From an uncultured Bacteroidales bacterium (GTDB lineage: Bacteria > Bacteroidota > Bacteroidia > Bacteroidales > CAIWKO01), in NCBI GenBank assembly GCA_964512865.1, contig CAZELC010000001.1, forward strand, positions 1 through 34,110: 34,110 nucleotides of DNA. The letters run 5' to 3'. The number at the start of each line of letters is the position of its first letter. Position 1 is the first letter of the stretch. The position numbers and the translations under genes are program-made. The notes under the pieces are model-generated. The model was not told the origin of the DNA and did not search any database. It saw only the letters and a list, made by a program, of their open reading frames with translations. Of the stretch, positions 1-12,586 are shown one piece after another.

Positions 1-1007
1 CAGCAGGCTCTTTCGTAGTTTTTATTAATTTACCCTTTGGTATGATGCTGATGAATCTAGCTGTAGGGAAAACAGGAGTTGAGTATTTTTTCTTTTCCGC
101 TTTTATTTTATCCTTTTATATTTTCACAAAGCCATGGCATATAAGAATTCTTGCCGTTTATCTTCTTATTTTGTTTGCGTTTTCAAAGCATTTTGAACAA
201 ACTATTGATGTACCTGAACAGTTTTTATCAATTCACCCATTTATTTATTATTCAAATATTTCTCTTACTTTTCTTATTGGCTATGTATTTCATCGTTTTT
301 TTGTTATGGAGCATGAGCGAAATAGAATCGAAATTGAAAATAAAAACGAATTACTTAAAAACTCATCTGAACTCGCAGTGAAAAAAAATGAAAAAATCAA
401 TACCCTTTTAAAGGAATTAAGTCATCGCACTAAAAATAATCTGCAACTGGTATCAAGCCTGATAAACAATCAAGCAAGTAAAGTTGAAGATCATAATGCA
501 AGGAAAGCACTACTGGATAGCAAAAACAGGATTATTTCCATTGCCTTGCTACATAAAAAGCTTTATCAGAATGAGAATTTCACAACTTTTTCTTTTAAAG
601 GATACGTTGATGATTTAATACTTCACCTCAAGGATATTTATTATGAAAAAATTTCGCAGTCGGAAATAATTGTTGAGATTGATGATTTTGAAATAAAGAT
701 TGATAAAGCCGTTACACTTGGGTTAATAATAAATGAGCTGTTAACAAATTCGTTTAATCATGGTATGTTGAATTCTGCCGAAGACAGGAAGTTCATCAAG
801 TTAAAAATAATATCTTTTCAAAATAATCTTCTTGAAATAAAAATTAACGATAGTGGAGTAGGAATTGAGAAGCTTTTTGAAGTAAAAAACACTAAATCTT
901 TCGGAATAAGTTTAATAAAATCACTTGTGAAACAAATGGAGGGAAATATATATTTTGCTGAAAACGGCAAAAACTCAGTCAGAATTGTTTTATCAATACT
1001 AGAATAA
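1..1007 (+). CDS. Membrane sensor histidine kinase, HisKA_2-type (possibly 5'-truncated by the window edge)
   Basis: ORF 42..1007. The frame stays open back to nt 3 and the upstream residues are hydrophobic, so the gene may begin outside the window. Hydrophobic N-terminal segments are followed by a coiled-coil linker and the H-box 'LSHRTKNNLQLVSSLI'. The ATPase part shows 'INELLTNSFNHG', 'NDSGVGI' and 'SFGISLIKSLV'. Confidence 0.85.
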   Translation, partial: AGSFVVFINLPFGMMLMNLAVGKTGVEYFFFSAFILSFYIFTKPWHIRILAVYLLILFAFSKHFEQTIDVPEQFLSIHPFIYYSNISLTFLIGYVFHRFFVMEHERNRIEIENKNELLKNSSELAVKKNEKINTLLKELSHRTKNNLQLVSSLINNQASKVEDHNARKALLDSKNRIISIALLHKKLYQNENFTTFSFKGYVDDLILHLKDIYYEKISQSEIIVEIDDFEIKIDKAVTLGLIINELLTNSFNHGMLNSAEDRKFIKLKIISFQNNLLEIKINDSGVGIEKLFEVKNTKSFGISLIKSLVKQMEGNIYFAENGKNSVRIVLSILE

Positions 1008-1011
1008 AGGT

Positions 1012-1593
1012 ATGAAAGAGAGAATACTAATAATTGAAGATGAAGTAATTATAGCCGAGGATATTAAAAATATTCTTGAGGCTGATGACTATTACGTATG
1101 TGCTATTGCCGATAATTATGATTCGGCGCTTTTAGAATTTAAATTGCACTCACCCGAGATAATCATTACTGATATCTATTTGAAAGGGAAGAAAAACGGA
1201 GTTGATGTTGCCCAGGAACTGATTAAGATTCAACCTGTTCCTTTTGTATTTATTACTGCTTATTCAAATGATGAGCTAATTGATACAATTTCACTTTTAC
1301 CAAATATCACATATATTACAAAGCCTTTTACCAATTCGCAGGTAATTGCAGCGGTAAAAATGATGTCGGCCCGCCTTAACAATATGAATAGTCTGCCTAA
1401 GCTATCCAAAAGAGAACAACAGGTATTGGATCTTCTGATAAAAGGACTCTCAAGTGCAGAAATTGCAAAAGAGCTTAAAATCAGTTTTGAAACAGTAAGG
1501 ACTTACAGAAAAAAACTTCTGACAAAATTCAAAGTAAAATCTGCCGGACAGCTGGTAAATATCGTTCTTAAATCAAATCCTTTTAAACTTTAA
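1012..1593 (+). CDS. Response regulator, receiver domain plus LuxR/GerE-type HTH
   Basis: Receiver motifs 'LIIEDE', 'IIITDIYL' and 'TKPF'. C-terminal HTH 'LSKREQQVLDLLIKGLSSAEIAKELKISFETVRTYRKKL'. Starts 4 nt after the kinase stop. Confidence 0.9.
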   Translation: MKERILIIEDEVIIAEDIKNILEADDYYVCAIADNYDSALLEFKLHSPEIIITDIYLKGKKNGVDVAQELIKIQPVPFVFITAYSNDELIDTISLLPNITYITKPFTNSQVIAAVKMMSARLNNMNSLPKLSKREQQVLDLLIKGLSSAEIAKELKISFETVRTYRKKLLTKFKVKSAGQLVNIVLKSNPFKL

Positions 1594-1620
1594 GGAAGAA
1601 ATTTATTATTTTCTTACCTT
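1592..1620. terminator. Imperfect hairpin spanning the convergent stops of the response regulator and gatD
   Basis: AAGGAAGAAA (1592-1601) can pair with TTTCTTACCTT (1610-1620) with one bulge. Only 12 nt separate the two convergent stop codons. Confidence 0.3.
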
Positions 1621-2991
1621 ACGAATAAAGTCCTCAACTTCTTTTACACCTCCCTGATAAATCAAGTAACCATTATATGGTTCACGCGAGGTAATTTCAT
1701 CATTAATAGGAGTAAGCATTATATCTCTAACTTTTTCGAGATCATTAGTTTGACCAAGCGCCCATCCAAGTTTAATATAAGCAACTTCGGGCAGCATATT
1801 TTCGGCAGGAATCACACCTTTTGCCATAAGGTCGCGACCGGTATCATAAACAAACATGTGAACATAACCCCAGAGAGTTTGAACTGTCATATAAATGGCA
1901 ACGCCTTTTTTAGTAGCTCTTTCTATTGCGGGGTAAAGTGGCTTATTAACATGCCCCAGACCTGTGCCAATGATTATTATTCCTTTATAACCATTGTCAA
2001 CCATGCTGTCAATCATGTCAGGCTGCATATTAGTATAATAATATATCATACCGACTTTTTCTTCAAAATAAGGAAGGATGGATACATTTCTGTCTTTTCT
2101 TCTGTGGTTATATACCGGCTTAATAGGAGTAACACCTTTTCTTGTAATTGTAGCAAGTGGTGTATCACCAATAGTTCTGAATGTTGAACGATATGACGAG
2201 TGCATTTTACGAACTCTTGTTCCACGATGAAGGAATCCATACTCATCTGATGTAGGACCAAACATGCAAACCATAACTTCGGCAATATCTCCATGTCCTG
2301 CAGCTGTACAAGCATGCATAAGATTAAGTGCCGCATCGGAGCTTGGTCTGTCAGACGAACGTTGTGAACCAACAAGTACGATTGGGACAGGAGAATTCTG
2401 AACCATAAATGTAAGGGCTGCAGCTGTATAGTGAAGTGTGTCAGTACCATGACCAATAACAATCCCTTCAACACCATTTTCTATTTCATTTCCAATAGCT
2501 ACAGCAAGTTTTTTATACTGTTCAGGACCCATATTTTCGCTGAATACCGCAAAAACTTTCTCTGTTGTAAGATTACAGATATCCGCTAATTCAGGAACTG
2601 CACCATAAAGCTCACCAGGTGAAAATGCAGGAATAACAGCTCCTGTTCTATAATCAAGTCGTGAAGCTATTGTACCACCTGTTCCGATAAGCTTAACTTT
2701 TGGTAAATTCGGCGTATAAGGGAATTCCTTTTCCGGAATTTTATAATTTGCCTTTTTATAACCTGTTTCAACCATTTCTGTAACAGTTGAAATATCTATA
2801 CCGACATTATAACCGGTAACAATTTTAAGAACGATATGCTTGTCGTCATCGTTTTCTGAACGAGGCAGAACTGTGCCTGTAAAAACTCCTCTTGTTGTAT
2901 TAACTGTTGCCTGCCCCCAAACTCTTACGTTGAACTTTTTTAATGTATCTAAGGCTGCACCTTTATATCCCTGAAAAAAATCTTCGCTCAT
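1606..2991 (-). CDS. gatD: Glu-tRNA(Gln) amidotransferase subunit D (archaeal-type GatD)
   Basis: 461 aa. An N-terminal ~95-aa extension precedes an asparaginase-type domain with 'GTGGTIASR' and 'GHGTDTLHYTAAAL'. It lies 52 nt downstream of a GatE-type gene on the same strand. Confidence 0.85.
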   Translation of the reverse strand: MSEDFFQGYKGAALDTLKKFNVRVWGQATVNTTRGVFTGTVLPRSENDDDKHIVLKIVTGYNVGIDISTVTEMVETGYKKANYKIPEKEFPYTPNLPKVKLIGTGGTIASRLDYRTGAVIPAFSPGELYGAVPELADICNLTTEKVFAVFSENMGPEQYKKLAVAIGNEIENGVEGIVIGHGTDTLHYTAAALTFMVQNSPVPIVLVGSQRSSDRPSSDAALNLMHACTAAGHGDIAEVMVCMFGPTSDEYGFLHRGTRVRKMHSSYRSTFRTIGDTPLATITRKGVTPIKPVYNHRRKDRNVSILPYFEEKVGMIYYYTNMQPDMIDSMVDNGYKGIIIIGTGLGHVNKPLYPAIERATKKGVAIYMTVQTLWGYVHMFVYDTGRDLMAKGVIPAENMLPEVAYIKLGWALGQTNDLEKVRDIMLTPINDEITSREPYNGYLIYQGGVKEVEDFIRKVRK

Positions 2992-3043
2992 TATTATCTG
3001 TTATTGAATTTCTAAATAGTAACTATTAATGTTAATTTTTCTT

Positions 3044-5008
3044 TTAGTTCTTGATAATCTCTACAAGTTCTTTTAATGCGATATTACCAAGCGACATTTC
3101 ATAAAGTTCTCCCATTATCCAGTTAGGACCAACCTCCGGATTTTTTGAAGTTCTAATTTTAGAGTATTTTTCCTTAAGAAAAGGAATATGCGATATTATT
3201 TCCTCTTTGGAGATACGCTTGAATTTAATACTGGTAAGTATTGATTCAAAGTCCATTTTTGGGTGTTCATAAATAACAGGCATCATTTTTCCGGCAAGTG
3301 CATAATCTATATTGTTTTTTTTGAGAAACAGGAAGAGATCAAAAACCTGACTATATTTAAATTCGCTTCCCTGCTGATAATGTCCTTCGATAAATTTAAG
3401 AGTATGACCAAAGAAAGAACCAATATACGATGGTTTAACATCAAGTTCATTAACAATCTTTTCAATAATCGGGAAAAGGTTATTTTTAAAAATATAAATA
3501 TGTGTATCTTCCGGGATATTCCAATCAACAAGCTGGTGATATCGTTGAATGACCTCAGAAGGAATATTTTTTCTAAGTTGCTCAATATAAGTGTTTTCAA
3601 GAGGAATTGGCTTTGAATCGGTATCAGGATACATACGGTCGGCACCCGGAAGTACTCTTTCAAATATTGTTGTCCCATTCTCAAATGATTTTCTTGTTTC
3701 ATTTGGAACGCCTTTAAATGCCATCTGACATCTTTCTTCAATTGTTTCGAGAGCAGTTTTTACATCAGCTTCGGGTCCCCAAAAAATAATTTGAGCATCA
3801 TCGGCAGCAGAATTAAGTAAATTATGAATTTTAATATAATCATCCGATGATATTTTCGGCTCAAATTCTTCGGAGTGCGACATATTTGGCTGTTCGAGAC
3901 AAGCCACAACTTTTAACCTTTCACTTATCTCATTAGCAAACATTTTTCCCGGTTGAGTAAAATGAGAAAGAACACCTTTAAATCCGGGAAGATTTACAAC
4001 AATAATTTTCCAGTTATTTTCTTTAGCTGCTTTTATTTCTTCTGTAGGGAAGTTAAAAGAATAAAAATCCATTTCCGAATGAGAAATTTTCCAGTTAGCA
4101 CCGTCGCCTAGTTTATTAGCTAAAATATCTTTTATCTGAAGAAGTGCCCATTGGCGATAACATTCATTATGAGTAAGTTCCGGTATCCATCTGGTATGCG
4201 CAACGCCTTTAATTTCAACTCTGGTTCCGCCTTTACAGCTAACATTAACATCTTCTCTTCCTGCTCCAATTCCTGTTCTTACTTTTTCAGTACTTCTGTT
4301 TAAGAAACGAATATAATTGCATGCTTCTTTGACTTCATCAGGATTTACCATATCCGGATAGGTAACAGTTTCAATCAGCGGCATTCCCAATCGGTCGGTT
4401 TGGTAAATTCTGTTGTGACCGATATCGCTAACTTCGCGGCAAGAATCTTCCTCAAGGCTGAGTTGTATAAGTCTCACTTTTTTGTTTTTCAATGGGATTT
4501 CACCTTCAACTCCAATAATAGCTGTTCTCTGAAACCCTGTAGGGATACTGCCATCAAGATATTGTTTTCTTGTAATATGAACTTCGCCTACGATGTTCAT
4601 TTTTGAAAGAAGTGAAATTTCTATAGCAATTCCGAGGGCTTCTCTGTTTAAAGGAAACGGAGGTGTATCATCCACTTCGTAAGTACAAGTAGTTTCATTT
4701 TTTATATGATATACAATATTCTTTCTTGTTTTAAATTCCATAAGAGCAGTACCGTCATATTCACCAAGTTCGCTCAGAGTAGGTCTCATGTGACGAATAA
4801 CTTCTGCATCGTAGTTATCGAATTTATGGAATTTTCCTGCAGGACAGTGGCAGAATAATTTTTCTTTGGTAAGAAGCTGTTGGTGAACTTCAAGACCTGA
4901 TTTGAAGCCAATCCTGTCGTAATCTGCTTGAGTTGCAAGTTTGCGTGGCACATAACCAATTTTCTTCTTAGATTCTTCGTAATTCTGTTTTGGATCGAAA
5001 TTATTCAT
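3044..5008 (-). CDS. gatE: Glu-tRNA(Gln) amidotransferase subunit E (archaeal-type GatE)
   Basis: 654 aa. The N-terminus 'DYDRIGFKSGLEVHQQLLTKEKLFCHCP' is the GatB/GatE signature with the HQQL variant. The length and a large internal insertion exceed what is expected for bacterial GatB. It is paired with gatD. Confidence 0.85.
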   Translation of the reverse strand: MNNFDPKQNYEESKKKIGYVPRKLATQADYDRIGFKSGLEVHQQLLTKEKLFCHCPAGKFHKFDNYDAEVIRHMRPTLSELGEYDGTALMEFKTRKNIVYHIKNETTCTYEVDDTPPFPLNREALGIAIEISLLSKMNIVGEVHITRKQYLDGSIPTGFQRTAIIGVEGEIPLKNKKVRLIQLSLEEDSCREVSDIGHNRIYQTDRLGMPLIETVTYPDMVNPDEVKEACNYIRFLNRSTEKVRTGIGAGREDVNVSCKGGTRVEIKGVAHTRWIPELTHNECYRQWALLQIKDILANKLGDGANWKISHSEMDFYSFNFPTEEIKAAKENNWKIIVVNLPGFKGVLSHFTQPGKMFANEISERLKVVACLEQPNMSHSEEFEPKISSDDYIKIHNLLNSAADDAQIIFWGPEADVKTALETIEERCQMAFKGVPNETRKSFENGTTIFERVLPGADRMYPDTDSKPIPLENTYIEQLRKNIPSEVIQRYHQLVDWNIPEDTHIYIFKNNLFPIIEKIVNELDVKPSYIGSFFGHTLKFIEGHYQQGSEFKYSQVFDLFLFLKKNNIDYALAGKMMPVIYEHPKMDFESILTSIKFKRISKEEIISHIPFLKEKYSKIRTSKNPEVGPNWIMGELYEMSLGNIALKELVEIIKN

Positions 5009-5045
5009 TTTAATGTAGTTATATTTTTCTTTTTAAAAAACCCGA

Positions 5046-5053
5046 CAAATTTA
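5046..5053 (-). promoter_or_regulatory. Bacteroidota-type -7 box (TAaaTTTG on the minus strand) upstream of gatE
   Basis: Plus-strand CAAATTTA is TAAATTTG on the minus strand, 38 nt upstream of the gatE start and just downstream of the fabH terminator. Confidence 0.4.
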
Positions 5054-5061
5054 CAAAAAAT

Positions 5062-5096
5062 AAAAAAAGGTTACGATTTTATCGTAACCTTTTTTA
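5062..5096 (-). terminator. Rho-independent terminator after fabH (symmetric, A/T-flanked)
   Basis: Perfect 9-bp stem GGTTACGAT/ATCGTAACC (5069-5077 and 5081-5089) with loop TTT. It is flanked by an A-run and a T-run, so it reads as hairpin plus U-tract on either strand. Confidence 0.75.
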
Positions 5097-5121
5097 AGGA
5101 ATATACTGATTTTTTTTATAC

Positions 5122-6117
5122 TCAGGAATTATATGCCCATTTAATATAAATTGAGCCCCATGTAAATCCTGCGCCAAATGCGGCAAGGATTAATTTATCT
5201 CCTTTTTTAAGTTGTTTTTCCCATTCCCAGAGGCAAAGTGGAAGAGTTGCAGCTGTAGTGTTACCATACTTTTCAATATTGATCATCACTTTTTCTTTGG
5301 GGAGTTTCATTCTGTGAGCAGTAGCCTCAATAATTCTCATATTTGCCTGATGCGGCACCAGCCATGCGATATCTTCTGATGTAAGGTTATGTTTTTTCAT
5401 CATTTCTTCAGCCACATCTGCCATTTTTGAAACTGCTGCTTTAAAAACAGCCTGTCCTTCCTGGTGTATGAAATGTTCACCAGCTTCAACGGTTTTTATG
5501 GATGCCGGCCAAACAGATCCGCCGGCTTTTTGATATAAGTGTTGCCTACCGGAACCGTCAACTCTAAGGATTGAGTCAATTATTCCATTTTCATCCGTTG
5601 AAGGCTCAAGCATGACAGCTGCCGCACCATCTCCGAAAATAACACATGTTGCCCTATCCTGATAATCAACAATTGAGGACATTTTTTCAGACCCCACAAC
5701 AACCACTTTTTTGCATGTACCTGTTTCAATAAATTTTGATGCGGTAACAAGTGCATATAAAAATCCGGAGCATCCGGCATTTAAATCATAACTGAAACCG
5801 TTTTTAATCCCAAGTTTATCACAAATAATATTTGCTGTTGCAGGGAATTGCATATCAGGTGTAACTGTAGCGCAAAGCAGGAAATCAACTTCTTCCGGAG
5901 AGGTTTTAGTTTTTTCGAGTAATCTTATTACTGCTTCAGCACCAAGATCAGATGACCCTTTTCCTTGTTCCTTAAGGATTCTTCTTTCTTTTATCCCCGT
6001 TCGACTCATTATCCACTCGTCAGTTGTTTCAACAATTTTCTCGAGTTCGGCATTGTTTAGGATGTAATCGGGCAGGTAACCTGCTACGCCCGTAATTGCT
6101 GCTCTGACCTTTGTCAT
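5122..6117 (-). CDS. fabH: 3-oxoacyl-ACP synthase III
   Basis: 331 aa with catalytic contexts 'NAGCSGF', 'PHQANMRI' and 'GNTTAATLP'. Confidence 0.95.
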   Translation of the reverse strand: MTKVRAAITGVAGYLPDYILNNAELEKIVETTDEWIMSRTGIKERRILKEQGKGSSDLGAEAVIRLLEKTKTSPEEVDFLLCATVTPDMQFPATANIICDKLGIKNGFSYDLNAGCSGFLYALVTASKFIETGTCKKVVVVGSEKMSSIVDYQDRATCVIFGDGAAAVMLEPSTDENGIIDSILRVDGSGRQHLYQKAGGSVWPASIKTVEAGEHFIHQEGQAVFKAAVSKMADVAEEMMKKHNLTSEDIAWLVPHQANMRIIEATAHRMKLPKEKVMINIEKYGNTTAATLPLCLWEWEKQLKKGDKLILAAFGAGFTWGSIYIKWAYNS

Positions 6118-6208: not shown

Positions 6209-6394
6209 TTATGCTTTTGCAGCTTTTTCTATTACCAGTTTACCTTTATAATAACCGCATTCAGCACATACTCTATGGTAGAGTACCGGAGCACCGCAAT
6301 TTGAACAAGTAATAACTGTTTGATCTGCTGCTTTATAATGCGTTTTTCTTTTAGCTGTTCTCGTTTTCGAGAATCTTCGTTTCGGGTGTGGCAT
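6209..6394 (-). CDS. rpmF: 50S ribosomal protein L32
   Basis: 61 aa starting 'MPHPKRRFSKTRTAKRKTH', with a CxxC...CxxC zinc ribbon ('CSNCG', 'CAECG'). Confidence 0.95.
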   Translation of the reverse strand: MPHPKRRFSKTRTAKRKTHYKAADQTVITCSNCGAPVLYHRVCAECGYYKGKLVIEKAAKA

Positions 6395-6399
6395 ACTAT

Positions 6400-6921
6400 T
6401 TAATTTTTAAATTTAACATCATTTAATTTTTCCCAGGGTGAATCTATTGTTTTATCGTTTTGTAATAATCTTAATTTATCAAGTACTTCCTTATTGCATA
6501 AACTGTTACCATTTTCATCCTCAGGATGAACTCTTCTTATTGGAAGCAGCAAAATGATAAACTCATATATAAACTGTTTTATGTCTATCTGAGTATCATT
6601 TTCCGAAATAATAATTTCATCTTCCGATTCTTCTGCATCTTCATTGCCAAATCGAATATAAAGGGTTTCAACTCCTTCAACCGGTTGGTCAAAAATCTCA
6701 AGGCAACGATCGCATTCGGTTTTTACAGTTCCTTTAATTTTAAAAGTCAGAAAAAAAACATCTGTTGTTTTATCAAAAACAACATCAACTTTAATATCAG
6801 CACTTTTTATTTCTGAGTATTCAAAAAGTTCAAAGAACTTATCATCAATATTATAGCTATACTGATGAATACCGGATTTAAGTCCGGAAAACTTTATTAT
6901 GAACTCACTATTAATGCTCAA
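6400..6921 (-). CDS. DUF177 (YceD-like) protein
   Basis: 173 aa lying 5 nt upstream of rpmF, which is the conserved yceD-rpmF arrangement. It contains the 'CDRCLE' motif and an acidic central region. The start is TTG. Confidence 0.85.
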   Translation of the reverse strand: MSINSEFIIKFSGLKSGIHQYSYNIDDKFFELFEYSEIKSADIKVDVVFDKTTDVFFLTFKIKGTVKTECDRCLEIFDQPVEGVETLYIRFGNEDAEESEDEIIISENDTQIDIKQFIYEFIILLLPIRRVHPEDENGNSLCNKEVLDKLRLLQNDKTIDSPWEKLNDVKFKN

Positions 6922-8286: not shown

Positions 8287-9678
8287 TTAAAACTTAATTG
8301 CAAAAGTTATTACATAGCTATATTCAGTCCTTTCAACATATCGCAATGGCATGACAGATGGCACAAAACTGAACTTTGACTTTAGCAGTTCGGCCTCAGA
8401 ACGCTTACTTCTTGCATATCTTTTATTAGATAGACCAGATGAGATATTATCTGTTCCATAAATCAAAAACGTAACAACTCCAAGTCCTACTGCAGCAGCT
8501 CCACCGAGTGAAAGACCTAAAGAAGCTTTTTTGTCGGGTTTATCACTCAAATTGGTAAGTGCATAATAACCGCCGGCACCGACAAGTCCAAGGCTGACTA
8601 CTGACCAAAGCACACCTTTTGTAATTTGAACTGAGCCTTTTTTGTCAGCATCATTTGCTTGTTTTATCATAAGATTATAATCATCCTTTGCTTCCTTAAT
8701 TGCAATTTCTTTTTCGATACTTTCAATCTTGGCAATTTTACCTTTTGCATTTGAAGGGTCGGCGGAGTTCACTGATATTGCAGTCTGATAATCGCTTTTG
8801 GCAGACTGATAATTCTGCTGATTAAAATACTTATCACCTCTGGCAACGTATTCAAAATAACTTTCTTTTTTAGCCTTATTGAAAATTTCAGTTGTTGCTG
8901 CATCAAGAGGTTTGATATTCTTTGCTTTGTTAAGGTTTTCGTAGGCACATAAGTATTTTTTTGCATTGTAGCAATTTTTTCCGGTTGAAACAAAGGAATT
9001 GTACTTCTGTTCATCTGCAATCTTTTTCTTGCCTTTATACTCTTCAATTTTTGAATTTATATTATTTTTCCAATCGCCACAGTAATCATAATTTAGTGCC
9101 GTTTTCAATGAGTTTATAGCATTGCCATAATCTTCCTTCCCTGCAAATTCAATTGCTTTGTTCCATTGTTTTTCAACATCAGAAGTATATTGCATATCCA
9201 CCGTTTCACAACTGTTAAAATCAAGTATTATCCCGCCATTGGAGCCTTTACTTATTTCTTTTGTACTATGAGCAAAATATCCTATCTCATTGCAAGCGTT
9301 AATTTTTTGTCCATCATCAGGGAATGGGCCCAATAATCTGAAAGAATTTGAAACTATTCTTTCCCGACCAGTGGTAAAGCTTTCATAATGAAAAGAATGC
9401 CCTTTGGTTCCATCAAAATATTTTATATACTTTTGCTTAACTGCCTTTTCAAAAGCTTCTTTTACTTTCAATTGTTCTTTGTAACAAATTTCATAGTCGG
9501 AGTAAATCACATCATAAACAAAAAGATGTTTTAATGAAGTATAATAATTCCCCGGACTGTTATACATTTCTTCAAGACAAATGTTTTCGGTGACAATATA
9601 CCAGTATGAAGCTTTTGAGTTTAAAGAAAATGCCAGAGCAAAAAACAATAATCTAATTTGTAATTTTATTCTTCTCAT
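8287..9678 (-). CDS. Hypothetical secreted protein with Cys-rich N-domain, TPR-like helical repeats and a C-terminal TM hairpin (paralog of 11255..12586)
   Basis: The listed ORF runs to 9726, but the Met at 9678 gives the signal peptide 'MRRIKLQIRLLFFALAFSLNSKA'. Helical repeats include 'YGNAINSLKTALNYD' and 'YQSAKSDYQTAISVN'. Two Gly-rich TM segments are 'GVLWSVVSLGLVGAGGYYAL' and 'LGLSLGGAAAVGLGVVTFLIYG'. The protein ends '...YVITFAIKF'. Confidence 0.7.
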   Translation of the reverse strand: MRRIKLQIRLLFFALAFSLNSKASYWYIVTENICLEEMYNSPGNYYTSLKHLFVYDVIYSDYEICYKEQLKVKEAFEKAVKQKYIKYFDGTKGHSFHYESFTTGRERIVSNSFRLLGPFPDDGQKINACNEIGYFAHSTKEISKGSNGGIILDFNSCETVDMQYTSDVEKQWNKAIEFAGKEDYGNAINSLKTALNYDYCGDWKNNINSKIEEYKGKKKIADEQKYNSFVSTGKNCYNAKKYLCAYENLNKAKNIKPLDAATTEIFNKAKKESYFEYVARGDKYFNQQNYQSAKSDYQTAISVNSADPSNAKGKIAKIESIEKEIAIKEAKDDYNLMIKQANDADKKGSVQITKGVLWSVVSLGLVGAGGYYALTNLSDKPDKKASLGLSLGGAAAVGLGVVTFLIYGTDNISSGLSNKRYARSKRSEAELLKSKFSFVPSVMPLRYVERTEYSYVITFAIKF

Positions 9679-9733
9679 AATGATATTTTTTTGATTATAA
9701 ATAAGTGCAGGGCTCATTTTCATCAATAAACTC

Positions 9734-10031
9734 TTAATACGAATAATTGTTAATATATTCTATTTTCCAATTGTCTGCCTTAGTATCGCCAATGTCTTTT
9801 GTACGGGCCTTGTCTGCCTCCGACTTTGTTTTATATCTCCATACCTGATAATTGCCCCACATATAGTATTTCGAGCCGTATTTTACTTTAACAACATCAT
9901 AGAACGGGACTTCAATTTGAGAATCACTCAATTTATCATCAGGAATAACAAAAACATTTGAGTAAAGTCTGTGCATTTCATAATCATTGCTTCCGAAAGC
10001 TGTTATATAAACATATTGAGGCTTTTTCTCA
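9734..10031. repeat. Dispersed direct repeat, copy 1 (gene-internal, pairs with 10758..11058)
   Basis: 9909-10031 is identical base-for-base to 10936-11058 (123 bp). The adjoining ~130 bp differ at about 8-9 positions, all silent. Confidence 0.9.
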
Positions 10032-10117
10032 TTTGTAATTAGTTTATGAGGAACTATTGAAAAAGATGAAAAAAGCATCATTGCAATTAATGCTAAAAAG
10101 ATTTTTTGTGTTTTCAT
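9734..10117 (-). CDS. Hypothetical small secreted protein (paralog of 10758..11144)
   Basis: 127 aa with signal peptide 'MKTQKIFLALIAMMLFSSFS'. 84 consecutive residues (EKKPQYVYITAF...KDIGDTK) are identical to those of the paralog. Confidence 0.75.
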   Translation of the reverse strand: MKTQKIFLALIAMMLFSSFSIVPHKLITNEKKPQYVYITAFGSNDYEMHRLYSNVFVIPDDKLSDSQIEVPFYDVVKVKYGSKYYMWGNYQVWRYKTKSEADKARTKDIGDTKADNWKIEYINNYSY

Positions 10118-10145
10118 AATATTTAAAGATTAATCACCAATAAGA

Positions 10146-10547
10146 TTACCACTCTCCCGTTTGTTTTCTTGTTTCAAAAGCACTTTTATTTTTCAAGGCA
10201 ATCGTCTTTCTGATATTTTCATAGTATTTTCCTTCGTTAGTGCCATTCTTGCAGTTTGTAAAGCTGGTTCTGACAATTGTCATAGCAAGACTTGTTAGCC
10301 TTGGTGCTGTGAAAACATTAGATACAATAACGTCTTCTTCGCAAGATTTTTCAAGAAGCTCTTTAAACAAAGTTGTTGCTTTTTCAATATCAGCATCATT
10401 TATATCAAGTCCGGAGGAAGCACCTGCACCCCAGAACAAATCAAATATTGCTTTTGTTTCTGATTCAGTAACCGTTTGAGAGAATGATTTCTGAGCAAAA
10501 ATTGATAATGATATGATTGCAATAAATAAAATAATTGCCTTTTTCAT
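10146..10547 (-). CDS. Hypothetical small secreted protein
   Basis: 133 aa with signal peptide 'MKKAIILFIAIISLSIFAQKSFSQ'. No recognisable motif. It sits between the two paralogous small genes. Confidence 0.65.
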   Translation of the reverse strand: MKKAIILFIAIISLSIFAQKSFSQTVTESETKAIFDLFWGAGASSGLDINDADIEKATTLFKELLEKSCEEDVIVSNVFTAPRLTSLAMTIVRTSFTNCKNGTNEGKYYENIRKTIALKNKSAFETRKQTGEW

Positions 10548-10757
10548 TTTGTATAATTTTAAATTTTATTAATAATAGCTTTATTTTTCAGTATACTATA
10601 ACTGTGCTCTTCAATGAAATACAAAGCTAAATGCATTTGAGTTGAATGAAAAGCTCAAAGTAAAAAATGCATAAAGATTTGATTTGCAATTGAATTGTTT
10701 CAGTGCAAATTTTTTCTTATAATTAATTTATAAATGCGGTTTCCCATATTTATATTA

Positions 10758-11058
10758 TCAATAGGAATAATCGTTAATATAATCTACCTTCCAGGCACCA
10801 TCAGACTTTGTATCTCCAATATCTTTTGTACGGGCCTTGTCGGCCTCCGATTTTGTTTTATATCGCCATACCTGATAATTACCCCACATATAGTATTTCG
10901 AGCCGTATTTTACTTTAACTACATCATAGAACGGTACTTCAATTTGAGAATCACTCAATTTATCATCAGGAATAACAAAAACATTTGAGTAAAGTCTGTG
11001 CATTTCATAATCATTGCTTCCGAAAGCTGTTATATAAACATATTGAGGCTTTTTCTCA
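10758..11058. repeat. Dispersed direct repeat, copy 2 (pairs with 9734..10031)
   Basis: See copy 1. Similarity ends at the signal-peptide coding region and weakens in the last ~15 codons. Confidence 0.9.
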
Positions 11059-11144
11059 CTGAAATTAATTTTATCAGGACCCTTAGAAAATGATGATAGA
11101 AGTACTACCATAATTACAACAAATACAAATTTTAACTTTTTCAT
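10758..11144 (-). CDS. Hypothetical small secreted protein (paralog of 9734..10117)
   Basis: 128 aa with signal peptide 'MKKLKFVFVVIMVVLLSSFS'. The mature part is near-identical to that of 9734..10117. Confidence 0.75.
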   Translation of the reverse strand: MKKLKFVFVVIMVVLLSSFSKGPDKINFSEKKPQYVYITAFGSNDYEMHRLYSNVFVIPDDKLSDSQIEVPFYDVVKVKYGSKYYMWGNYQVWRYKTKSEADKARTKDIGDTKSDGAWKVDYINDYSY

Positions 11145-11254
11145 AATAATTTGTTTTAAATTAGTAATAATATTAATTTTTGTTAATTCATATGCAAAAC
11201 TGGTTTATATCTTTGTTAACTTTAAAGAAATAACATTTATAAATTCATTCATTT

Positions 11255-12586
11255 CTAATTATTCTGAAGTCTTTTTAGTTCCCTCTTCTTTTTTTGCAAC
11301 TTTCCAATATCACTAAATCCAATAATGGTTGAAATAAGCCCATAAAGATCCATGATACCTCCCACAACAATCATTACTAGACCAAGTGTTTCCTTTTCCT
11401 GCTCAACGGAAACACCATAAATTGTTAATGGAACCCCTCCTGCTAAGACTGCCATGCCAATACCAATGTCCTTTGGTATTGATTTTTTATACTTTTTAAT
11501 CTCAGATTGAAGTTGGATGACCTGATTCTCCTTTATCAAATTATTAACCTGTTCTAAATATTTATTGGCAGTAGCATCGTTTGGATGATATTGGAGGGCT
11601 TTTTCGAATGATTGTTTTGCCGCCTCATATTGCTTCGCGGCCATTTCACCTTTGCCTTTTTCAATATTAAAACCATAATTCGCATTATTTATTTTAGTGC
11701 TTAATCCTTTTTCGTTTGGCAAAATTGATTTTGCAAGATTATAGTTTTCTAAGGCTTTCGAGAAATTGCCAATTTTAAATTCATTGTCACCCTTTTCTAC
11801 ATAATATTTATAATTTTCTTTTTTTGACTGATTAAGCATCCTAACACAAGTTGTATCAAGTGCAAACAACTTAGCTGCATTTTCAAAATAACTCTGTGCC
11901 GACAAAAAATCCTTACTATTAAAAGAGTTTTTTCCATTACTAACATTTTTTTCAAAATTATTCCTCTTTATTTCCAGTTGTTTTTTTGCATAATCAGTTT
12001 TGGCTTTTTGTGCATTTTCAATTTTCTCATTAATTTCATCAGCTTTGCTTCCACAATCGCATTCAAGAGCCTCTTCATAAAAGGAGATCGCTTCATCAAA
12101 TTTATTTTTTGCCAGCTCAGTATTTCCTTTCTTGATATTTTCCATTGAACAGGACTTATATTTGAAACCTTGATCATAATAGCAGGTATTTATACAACCC
12201 AGCAGCTTTATGGTTTCATTATCATACTTCTCATATCCATAACGACTGCAAGAATTTTTCAATGCCTCATCACATGATTTATATGGCCCAAAAATTCTTA
12301 AAGCATCATTGAATTTAGCTACTTTATTATCCTTATAAAAATACTCAGCATCATACGTTTCCTTAAGATATTCCCAATATTGACTTTTCTGATATTTCAT
12401 TTCTTTATCGCAGAGCATATCTTCAGTTTTAAAGCATCTTATCCTTATATCAGTACACTTTGAATTTTTTGAATGAAATTCAGTCCCTATTGTATAATAA
12501 TATGAACCTTCCTGAGCAAAAATATTTTTGCCTGTCATTAAACTTAATGCAATTATAATTAGTATTAAATAATTACTCTTTCTCAT
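11255..12586 (-). CDS. Hypothetical secreted protein with Cys-rich N-domain, TPR-like helical repeats and a C-terminal TM hairpin (paralog of 8287..9678)
   Basis: 443 aa with signal peptide 'MRKSNYLILIIIALSLMTGKNIFAQ'. Colinear similarity to 8287..9678, for example 'FDEAISFYEEALECDCGSKADEINEKIE' versus 'YGNAINSLKTALNYDYCGDWKNNINSKIE'. TM segments are 'IGIGMAVLAGGVPLTIYGV' and 'LGLVMIVVGGIMDLYGLISTIIGF'. Confidence 0.7.
   Translation of the reverse strand: MRKSNYLILIIIALSLMTGKNIFAQEGSYYYTIGTEFHSKNSKCTDIRIRCFKTEDMLCDKEMKYQKSQYWEYLKETYDAEYFYKDNKVAKFNDALRIFGPYKSCDEALKNSCSRYGYEKYDNETIKLLGCINTCYYDQGFKYKSCSMENIKKGNTELAKNKFDEAISFYEEALECDCGSKADEINEKIENAQKAKTDYAKKQLEIKRNNFEKNVSNGKNSFNSKDFLSAQSYFENAAKLFALDTTCVRMLNQSKKENYKYYVEKGDNEFKIGNFSKALENYNLAKSILPNEKGLSTKINNANYGFNIEKGKGEMAAKQYEAAKQSFEKALQYHPNDATANKYLEQVNNLIKENQVIQLQSEIKKYKKSIPKDIGIGMAVLAGGVPLTIYGVSVEQEKETLGLVMIVVGGIMDLYGLISTIIGFSDIGKLQKKKRELKRLQNN

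Follow-up and report, generated by a model that had tools for sequence, protein, structure and literature searches.

Reviews treat the two-subunit amidotransferase GatDE as an archaeal signature protein found in archaea only. They build on this distribution arguments about LUCA (the last universal common ancestor) and about why glutaminyl-tRNA synthetase (GlnRS) was never gained by archaea. According to these reviews, archaeal GatDE needs the A1-U72 pair of its tRNA and reads the D-loop through insertion and tail domains. The archaeal enzyme is a glutamyl-tRNA amidotransferase (Glu-AdT) whose insertion domain was modelled to clash with aspartyl-tRNA synthetase (AspRS). The essential residues of the Methanothermobacter thermautotrophicus enzyme are H15, E157 and E184 in GatE and, in GatD, a Thr nucleophile with a Thr-Asp-Lys triad (PMC2330236). 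Crystal structures are those of M. thermautotrophicus (2D6F, with tRNAGln) and Pyrococcus abyssi (1ZQ1). GatE is a paralogue of GatB, a subunit of the amidotransferase GatCAB.

Here we describe a gatE-gatD pair from an uncultured Bacteroidales bacterium. The window, meaning the whole stretch of 34,110 nt that was analysed, lies on contig C1 (CAZELC010000001.1) of assembly GCA_964512865.1 (3.15 Mb, 517 contigs, 69.6% complete, 1.4% contamination). Judged by its sequence, the locus is a genuine bacterial variant of GatDE, common and to all appearance functional. The functional context of the family is lacking on two points, the first pair of tRNAGln and the absence of GlnRS. A search of one literature library for bacterial GatDE, in which papers since 2015 that mention GatDE, with or without Bacteroidetes, were judged by title, returned no description. 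Databases already name these proteins automatically as 'glutamyl-tRNA(Gln) amidotransferase subunit E'; the gap is in the literature, not in annotation.

Identity and predicted structure

The two genes, with roles assigned by family match, are:
3044..5008, minus strand: gatE, 654 aa, tRNA-dependent kinase/transamidase subunit
1606..2991, minus strand: gatD, 461 aa, amide-donor hydrolase subunit

Both open reading frames lie exactly where an earlier note, made from the sequence alone, had placed them, and the GatD and GatE architecture it proposed is borne out by scores above equivalog cut-offs. GatE scores 467.4 bits on NF003107 (cut-off 456), aligned end to end over residues 27–652, and 408 bits on TIGR00134 (cut-off 319.55). 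On the best-scoring GatB model it reaches 120.4 bits where 338 are required, and all GatB cut-offs are at least 315. GatD scores 504 bits on NF003217 (cut-off 310) and 503.6 bits on TIGR02153 (cut-off 324), and contains the Pfam domains GatD_N (PF18195), Asparaginase (PF00710) and Asparaginase_C (PF17763). The GatD core resembles type I L-asparaginase (AnsA) and scores 376.9 bits on TIGR00519 (cut-off 260.5); PDB asparaginases score about 130 bits. Unlike AnsA, the protein has the GatD_N domain, scores higher on the GatD equivalogs and is paired with gatE. In PDB, phmmer matches both proteins best to their counterpart chains in 2D6F and 1ZQ1, GatE at 298.6 and 277.5 bits and GatD at 387.8 and 383.2 bits. 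By these profile and chain matches the pair is assigned to GatD and GatE proper rather than to a bacterial asparaginase and GatB.

The motifs read from the sequence earlier are present in both proteins. GatD has GTGGT (103–107) and HGTDT (181–185), along with VRKMH (260–264), and GatE has GLEVHQQ (38–44) followed by FCHCP. The GatE Mg site, formed by H42, E186 and E213, corresponds to M. thermautotrophicus H15, E157 and E184 and is unchanged across a 37-sequence GatE alignment. GatD T107, T183, D184 and K262 correspond to T101, T177, D178 and K254. The enzyme is judged catalytically intact from these conserved active-site residues.

The two subunits appear to have the same domain order as in archaea. 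GatE consists of a cradle catalytic domain, a putative AspRS-like insert at about 296–404, a helical domain and a helical tail; Pfam GatB_N spans residues 37–476 for 277 model positions, and the insert has the expected size and position. An AlphaFold2 model of GatE (pLDDT 88.5, pTM 0.84) matched 1zq1_C at TM 0.85 and 2d6f_D at TM 0.82 over 512–536 columns in Foldseek, with weak matches to AspRS. The tail (553–653) was modelled at pLDDT of about 90. In the model, the GAD-like insert and YqeY-like tail appear to retain their folds.

Identity to archaeal GatDE is only 30–34% for GatE and 46–48% for GatD, and the bacterial proteins form a separate clade. Unlike the two crystallised archaeal enzymes, GatE begins with an extra 26–28 residues specific to the bacterial clade. 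In the aligned Bacteroidales sequences this extension (residues 1–28) is conserved as FDPxxNYxxTxxxxGYVxRKxATQxDYDRIGF, and residues 6–17 within it are modelled as a helix. The genes also differ in arrangement, since gatE and gatD form one operon here and gatE stands alone in two archaeal contexts checked.

Distribution and selection

Of 22 genomes in the host's family, 21 encode GatE, among them a one-contig genome of 4.9 Mb, and the 41 relatives surveyed include carriers from five more families. In an even draw of 401 genomes from the same order, GatE scored over the cut-off in 176 genomes, 113 of 237 genera and 76 of 148 families (the last being our own count of listed rows). A pattern scan with one genome per species returned at least 183 loci. 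The best 80 of these are nearly all from metagenome-assembled genomes (MAGs) of Bacteroidales or Bacteroidota, several of them closed chromosomes, with GatE 66–75% identical. The earlier note implied that the pair is rare, yet environmental Bacteroidales carry it very commonly and databases name it already.

In 77/85 loci gatD directly follows gatE on the same strand, usually after a gap of less than 60 nt. Across the 77 Bacteroidales loci GatD is 77–92% identical and almost always exactly 461 aa long. Three loci with the closest GatE relatives (L009, L011 and L016; 72–75% identity) have no gatD within 2.5–6 kb after gatE, and tblastn found no GatD across their fetched stretches; gatD must be elsewhere in those genomes or missing. 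Another locus (L017) has 2.2 kb inserted between gatE and gatD.

The pair is under strong purifying selection. In moderately diverged pairs, dN/dS is about 0.03 for gatE and 0.01–0.02 for gatD, values that are rough since dS is saturated. For the same genome pairs, GatD is 79–88% identical, GatE 64–70% and the essential glutamyl-tRNA synthetase (GluRS) 57–63%.

The source is a fragmented MAG, and an archaeal fragment could have been mis-binned or mis-assembled into it, or a recent transfer could be decaying there. We regard either as very improbable. On a single contig, bacterial core genes flank the pair, which carries a promoter box of the Bacteroidota type and matches its neighbours in composition. 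The pair also occurs in closed or one-contig chromosomes and in hundreds of species, and the frames are intact under the low dN/dS given above. The view that the contig is neither chimeric nor archaeal, taken in the earlier note, agrees with the retention of the pair throughout the family, in the 4.9 Mb one-contig genome and in half of the sampled families of the order.

When the flanks of the 85 loci were clustered, no constant neighbour was found and none that pointed to another pathway. Recurring flank genes are all housekeeping genes, namely OstA-like, amidase, MlaD, FabH, NUDIX and a nuclease with a type IX secretion system (T9SS) tail.

Evolutionary origin

A homologue scan of 1.84 billion representatives returned 603 clusters at E<=1e-30. 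A GatE tree of 125 sequences was built with FastTree from 111 full-length representatives, labelled Bacteroidales copies, two archaeal sequences from PDB and three Bacteroidales GatB as outgroup. Sequences grouping with the window GatE form one clade of 41 rows (support 99–100), inside which the Bacteroidales copies are a long-stemmed subclade. Six members outside the Bacteroidales subgroup have plainly bacterial gene contexts, which include sigma-54 activators, HPr kinase/phosphotransferase system (PTS) genes, Lnt, Mur ligases, T9SS tails and ClpB.

Rooted on GatB, the bacterial clade nests among other GatE, with P0043, P0056/P0067 and a 6-row group as successive sisters; the supports for this nesting are moderate (92, 84 and 71). 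The P0043 gene adjoins S13-S4-S11 and archaeal aS21, and the P0056 gene adjoins a Trm5/TYW2 gene; on inspection both contexts read as archaeal. GatD has the same split, with 59–71% identity among bacteria and 45–48% to archaea. The nesting of the bacterial clade within archaeal GatE would thus fit one old archaea-to-bacteria transfer of GatDE, followed by spread within bacteria. An old transfer was one of the readings the earlier note had suggested, and it fits the GatB-rooted GatE tree.

Two non-Bacteroidales members of the clade (L129, 6595–11329; L141, 7001–12846) have a histidine kinase and a sigma-54-dependent response regulator as neighbours of gatE-gatD, joined in L129 by hpf-hprK-ptsH-ptsI. 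Sigma-54 control was considered for these two copies, which lie near NtrC-type regulators, and was dropped when no -24/-12 element was found upstream of gatE.

Co-occurrence with GlnRS, AsnRS and GatCAB

The host genome encodes GlnRS (774.6 bits) and asparaginyl-tRNA synthetase (AsnRS; 619.9 bits), together with one bacterial GluRS (494 bits) and one bacterial-type AspRS. Each relative also has one GluRS. A second GatB/GatE-like gene was searched for in this genome and in its nearly complete relatives, and none was found. The search for glnS and gatCAB that the earlier note had called for thus returned a GlnRS in the genome itself and no GatB in the genome or the family.

GatE, GlnRS, GatB and AsnRS were cross-tabulated over the 401-genome draw, with high-quality genomes defined as at least 90% complete. 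Counts for high-quality genomes are:
GatB present: GlnRS missing in 5/10
GatDE alone: GlnRS missing in 2/143 (present in 141/143)
Neither amidotransferase: GlnRS missing in 2/189

GlnRS loss differs between GatB genomes and GatDE-only genomes (Fisher p=8e-6) and not between GatDE-only genomes and those with neither enzyme (p=1.0). GlnRS is indispensable where there is no amidotransferase, so the 2/189 gaps measure the rate of assembly gaps. AsnRS is missing in 2/146 GatE-positive and 2/196 other high-quality genomes. The genomes in the cross-tabulation are not phylogenetically independent. Some GatE-positive genomes with extra weak matches may carry GatB; all of these keep GlnRS, and they would only soften the GatB rate. 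GlnRS loss occurs in four GatB-bearing families and is convincing in no GatDE-only family.

GatDE-only genomes therefore keep GlnRS at the rate of genomes without any amidotransferase. Bacterial GatDE has nowhere freed GlnRS from selection in the sample, and it is auxiliary, not a replacement. The earlier note had offered Gln-tRNA formation by this pair as the route the organism now uses. That suggestion does not stand beside a full GlnRS, its retention in GatDE-only genomes and a lone GluRS that shows no change linked to GatDE.

Within the order, lineages with GatCAB lose GlnRS and those with GatDE do not convincingly do so. A few lineages keep GatCAB and have lost GlnRS, the classical indirect pathway (G106 and G235 of family f85; G335 of f78; G415 of f46). 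From most of the order, GatB and GatE are both absent. Family f82 has small genomes (G103, G232 and G339; 1.9–2.2 Mb) in which GlnRS is missing in 3/3 and AsnRS is present. G103 and G232 have GatDE and a full GatB; in G339, GatE is partial and the only GatB-like sequence is a short fragment where a contig ends. The combination is reminiscent of the archaeal set-up with two amidotransferases. The absence of GlnRS in f82 was considered as proof of GatDE function and set aside as ambiguous, since a true GatB (588 bits) is also present.

Substrate and function

We hold it about evenly balanced that bacterial GatDE serves alongside GlnRS as an auxiliary Glu-tRNAGln amidotransferase. By homology, GatE would bind mischarged tRNA and phosphorylate the side-chain carboxyl with ATP/Mg, and GatD would hydrolyse Gln or Asn, with ammonia passing through a tunnel to amidate the intermediate. 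The putative substrate is Glu-tRNAGln, which the lone GluRS may form at a low level on the bacterial U1-A72 tRNAGln. The pair would act as a back-up or in clean-up, for instance under a shortage of free glutamine or to dispose of toxic Glu-tRNAGln, and would not be the main supply of Gln-tRNAGln. Glu rather than Asp is most likely the substrate, because the archaeal enzyme is a Glu-AdT with an insertion modelled to clash with AspRS and that fold appears to be kept here.

Several observations weigh against this role. The sole tRNAGln(UUG) in the assembly (C81:163–236; one of 13 tRNA genes found, an incomplete set) has U1-A72. When the tRNAGln identity elements named in the earlier note were checked, the first pair could be read, and the A1-U72 pair of the archaeal system was not found. 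The absences scored in the host assembly rest on its relatives, as it is 69.6% complete. GatDE presence varies inside some families of the 401-genome draw (such as f3, f10 and f26); GatDE has been repeatedly lost within families and is therefore dispensable.

GluRS residues also give the putative Glu-tRNAGln source no support. In Thermus thermophilus GluRS, R358Q turns a discriminating enzyme into a non-discriminating one (PMC2978374). The Arg358 position was mapped through 1J09, to which a T. thermophilus GluRS query aligned along its full 468 residues without a visible mismatch. Arg, the residue of the discriminating state, occupies this position in 21/21 Bacteroidales GluRS, with or without GatDE, and almost all of the 21 have Gly at the Thr444 position. 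From these two residues together, discrimination cannot be called. No alignment column of GluRS separates the 10 genomes with GatDE from the 11 without it. Co-variation of GluRS with GatDE was rejected on the lack of such a column and the retention of Arg358 in all; on this alignment GluRS did not co-evolve with GatDE.

The last point concerns the tRNA-reading parts of GatE. A search of the window GatE against Pfam GAD and GatB_Yqey at E<=5 gave no match, and the same search with the archaeal GatE P0043 gave 42 bits for GAD and 88 bits for GatB_Yqey. With these matches lost, tRNA recognition by GatE has probably changed and could target something else.

The earlier note had raised recruitment for another amidation. 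It is conceivable, though unlikely, that the whole clade has been retargeted, so that it amidates another aminoacyl-tRNA or carboxylate or acts as a tRNA-gated asparaginase or glutaminase, and contributes nothing to the supply of Gln-tRNAGln or Asn-tRNAAsn. The divergence of both tRNA-reading modules beyond Pfam detection would suit such a change, as would the clade-specific N-terminal extension, the fact that GlnRS and AsnRS are never replaced in 143–146 high-quality carriers and the lack of co-variation in GluRS or AspRS. Against it, no residue of the kinase/transamidase or amidase sites varies, the alignment to the NCBIfam GatE model runs along its whole length, and the modelled fold, insertion and tail included, superposes on archaeal GatE and GatB. 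The flanks likewise hold no conserved neighbour that suggests another pathway.

Tentatively, and with rather less confidence than for the auxiliary Glu-tRNAGln role, we also consider that the clade no longer supplies Gln-tRNAGln for translation. Its tRNA-reading modules would have been rebuilt after the archaeal transfer for a new job beyond that of GlnRS. Candidate jobs are a dual Glu/Asp amidotransferase that acts on U1-A72 tRNAs under nitrogen stress only, clean-up of mischarged tRNA, or amidation of another aminoacyl-tRNA. A new job would explain why half of the Bacteroidales families keep GatDE under strong selection without giving up GlnRS or AsnRS, and why lineages with GatCAB do give up GlnRS.

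The comparison with bacterial GatCAB raises a further possibility. In Thermus, Deinococcus and Bdellovibrio, GatCAB is likewise kept with both direct synthetases and looks redundant for translation. It differs in having an amidase-type GatA unrelated to the asparaginase-type GatD, and GatDE has no GatC. GatCAB in these three is explained by missing asparagine synthetases and a non-discriminating AspRS, and neither is evident here. By analogy, GatDE could be an Asp-tRNAAsn amidotransferase for tRNA-dependent asparagine synthesis, which we think improbable. There is precedent for genomes with AsnRS, GlnRS and an amidotransferase, including in Bacteroidetes (PMC4206432). AsnA is present in 0/27 relatives with GatDE and 6/14 without it (Fisher p=0.0007), a pattern that is confounded by phylogeny. 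In three GatDE genomes (G025, G033 and G035) neither type of asparagine synthetase has a homologue; both types are missing about equally often, in 2/14 genomes without GatDE and 3/27 with it. The family of the host has 3–7 AsnB-like asn_synth_AEB genes per genome, with five matches in the host itself. Taken together, the asparagine synthetase profiles are equivocal as a test of tRNA-dependent asparagine synthesis.

The synthetases themselves give this alternative little help. AsnRS is no likelier to be lost where GatDE is present (the 2/146 and 2/196 given above), and no co-variation of AspRS with GatDE was found, the same anticodon-domain residues (RSRDL...K) being present in genomes with and without the pair. 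By the H31/G83 rule, we take these residues to be as in the discriminating AspRS of Escherichia coli. The only tRNAAsn in the assembly has U1-A72, as tRNAGln does, and a retuned GatE could read both. The modelled clash of the GatE insertion domain with AspRS (PMC2330236) would stand in the way.

Locus organization

Other features of the locus, all from the window, are:
6400–6921, minus strand: YceD/DUF177
6209–6394, minus strand: rpmF (L32)
5122–6117, minus strand: fabH (FabH)
5095–5063, minus strand: intrinsic terminator, 15-bp hairpin and T-run; ends fabH and forms the upstream boundary of the gatE-gatD unit
5053–5046, minus strand: -7 promoter box TAAATTTG (TAnnTTTG, Bacteroidota-type), read in the sequence, 38 nt before the gatE ATG
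2992..3043, minus strand: gatE-gatD spacer, 52 nt
1012–1593, plus strand: LuxR-type response regulator
42–1007, plus strand: HisKA_2 kinase

The minus-strand genes run in the order YceD/DUF177, rpmF, fabH, gatE and gatD, and converge on the plus-strand kinase and regulator. These are the neighbours that the earlier note had named, and its Bacteroidota-type -7 box was located shortly after the fabH terminator. The box begins ten bases past the hairpin and T-run. This terminator is the sole terminator-like site within 1400–5300, and a scan of the 52-nt spacer found nothing terminator-like. The genes gatE and gatD are probably co-transcribed, and the locus reads as a two-gene gatE-gatD operon with its own promoter. 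TAnnTTTG occurs within 150 nt upstream of gatE in 63/76 related loci, mostly at -34 to -55 relative to gatE, compared with 9% of shuffled upstream regions. GC content at 1–5 kb is 0.33–0.385, within the 0.28–0.41 of the remaining window, which agrees with the earlier reading that the pair resembles its neighbours in composition.

Elsewhere in the window, a tandem duplicated cassette on the minus strand (8287–12586) encodes two small secreted proteins and two TPR-like proteins. The small secreted proteins (9734–10117, 127 aa; 10758–11144, 128 aa) are nearly identical to each other over some 100 C-terminal residues (KKPQYVYITAFGSNDYEMHRLY...). Both lie upstream of their own TPR-like protein of 440–480 aa with a C-terminal membrane segment (8287–9726; 11255–12586). 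Another small lipoprotein-like open reading frame is found at 10146–10547 within this region.

Significance

New here are the cross-tabulation of GlnRS, AsnRS and GatB, the tests made on GluRS and AspRS, and the observation that the tRNA-reading domains are lost at the Pfam level. The clade extends past Bacteroidales to other bacteria with sigma-54, PTS and Mur-ligase contexts. It offers a natural experiment in which the same enzyme is found with bacterial U1-A72 tRNAs, a bacterial GluRS and a coexisting GlnRS. The contrast between GatCAB and GatDE in GlnRS loss poses a concrete question on the purpose of a second amidotransferase. A large and old bacterial GatDE clade alters the factual basis of the arguments on LUCA and on GlnRS acquisition.

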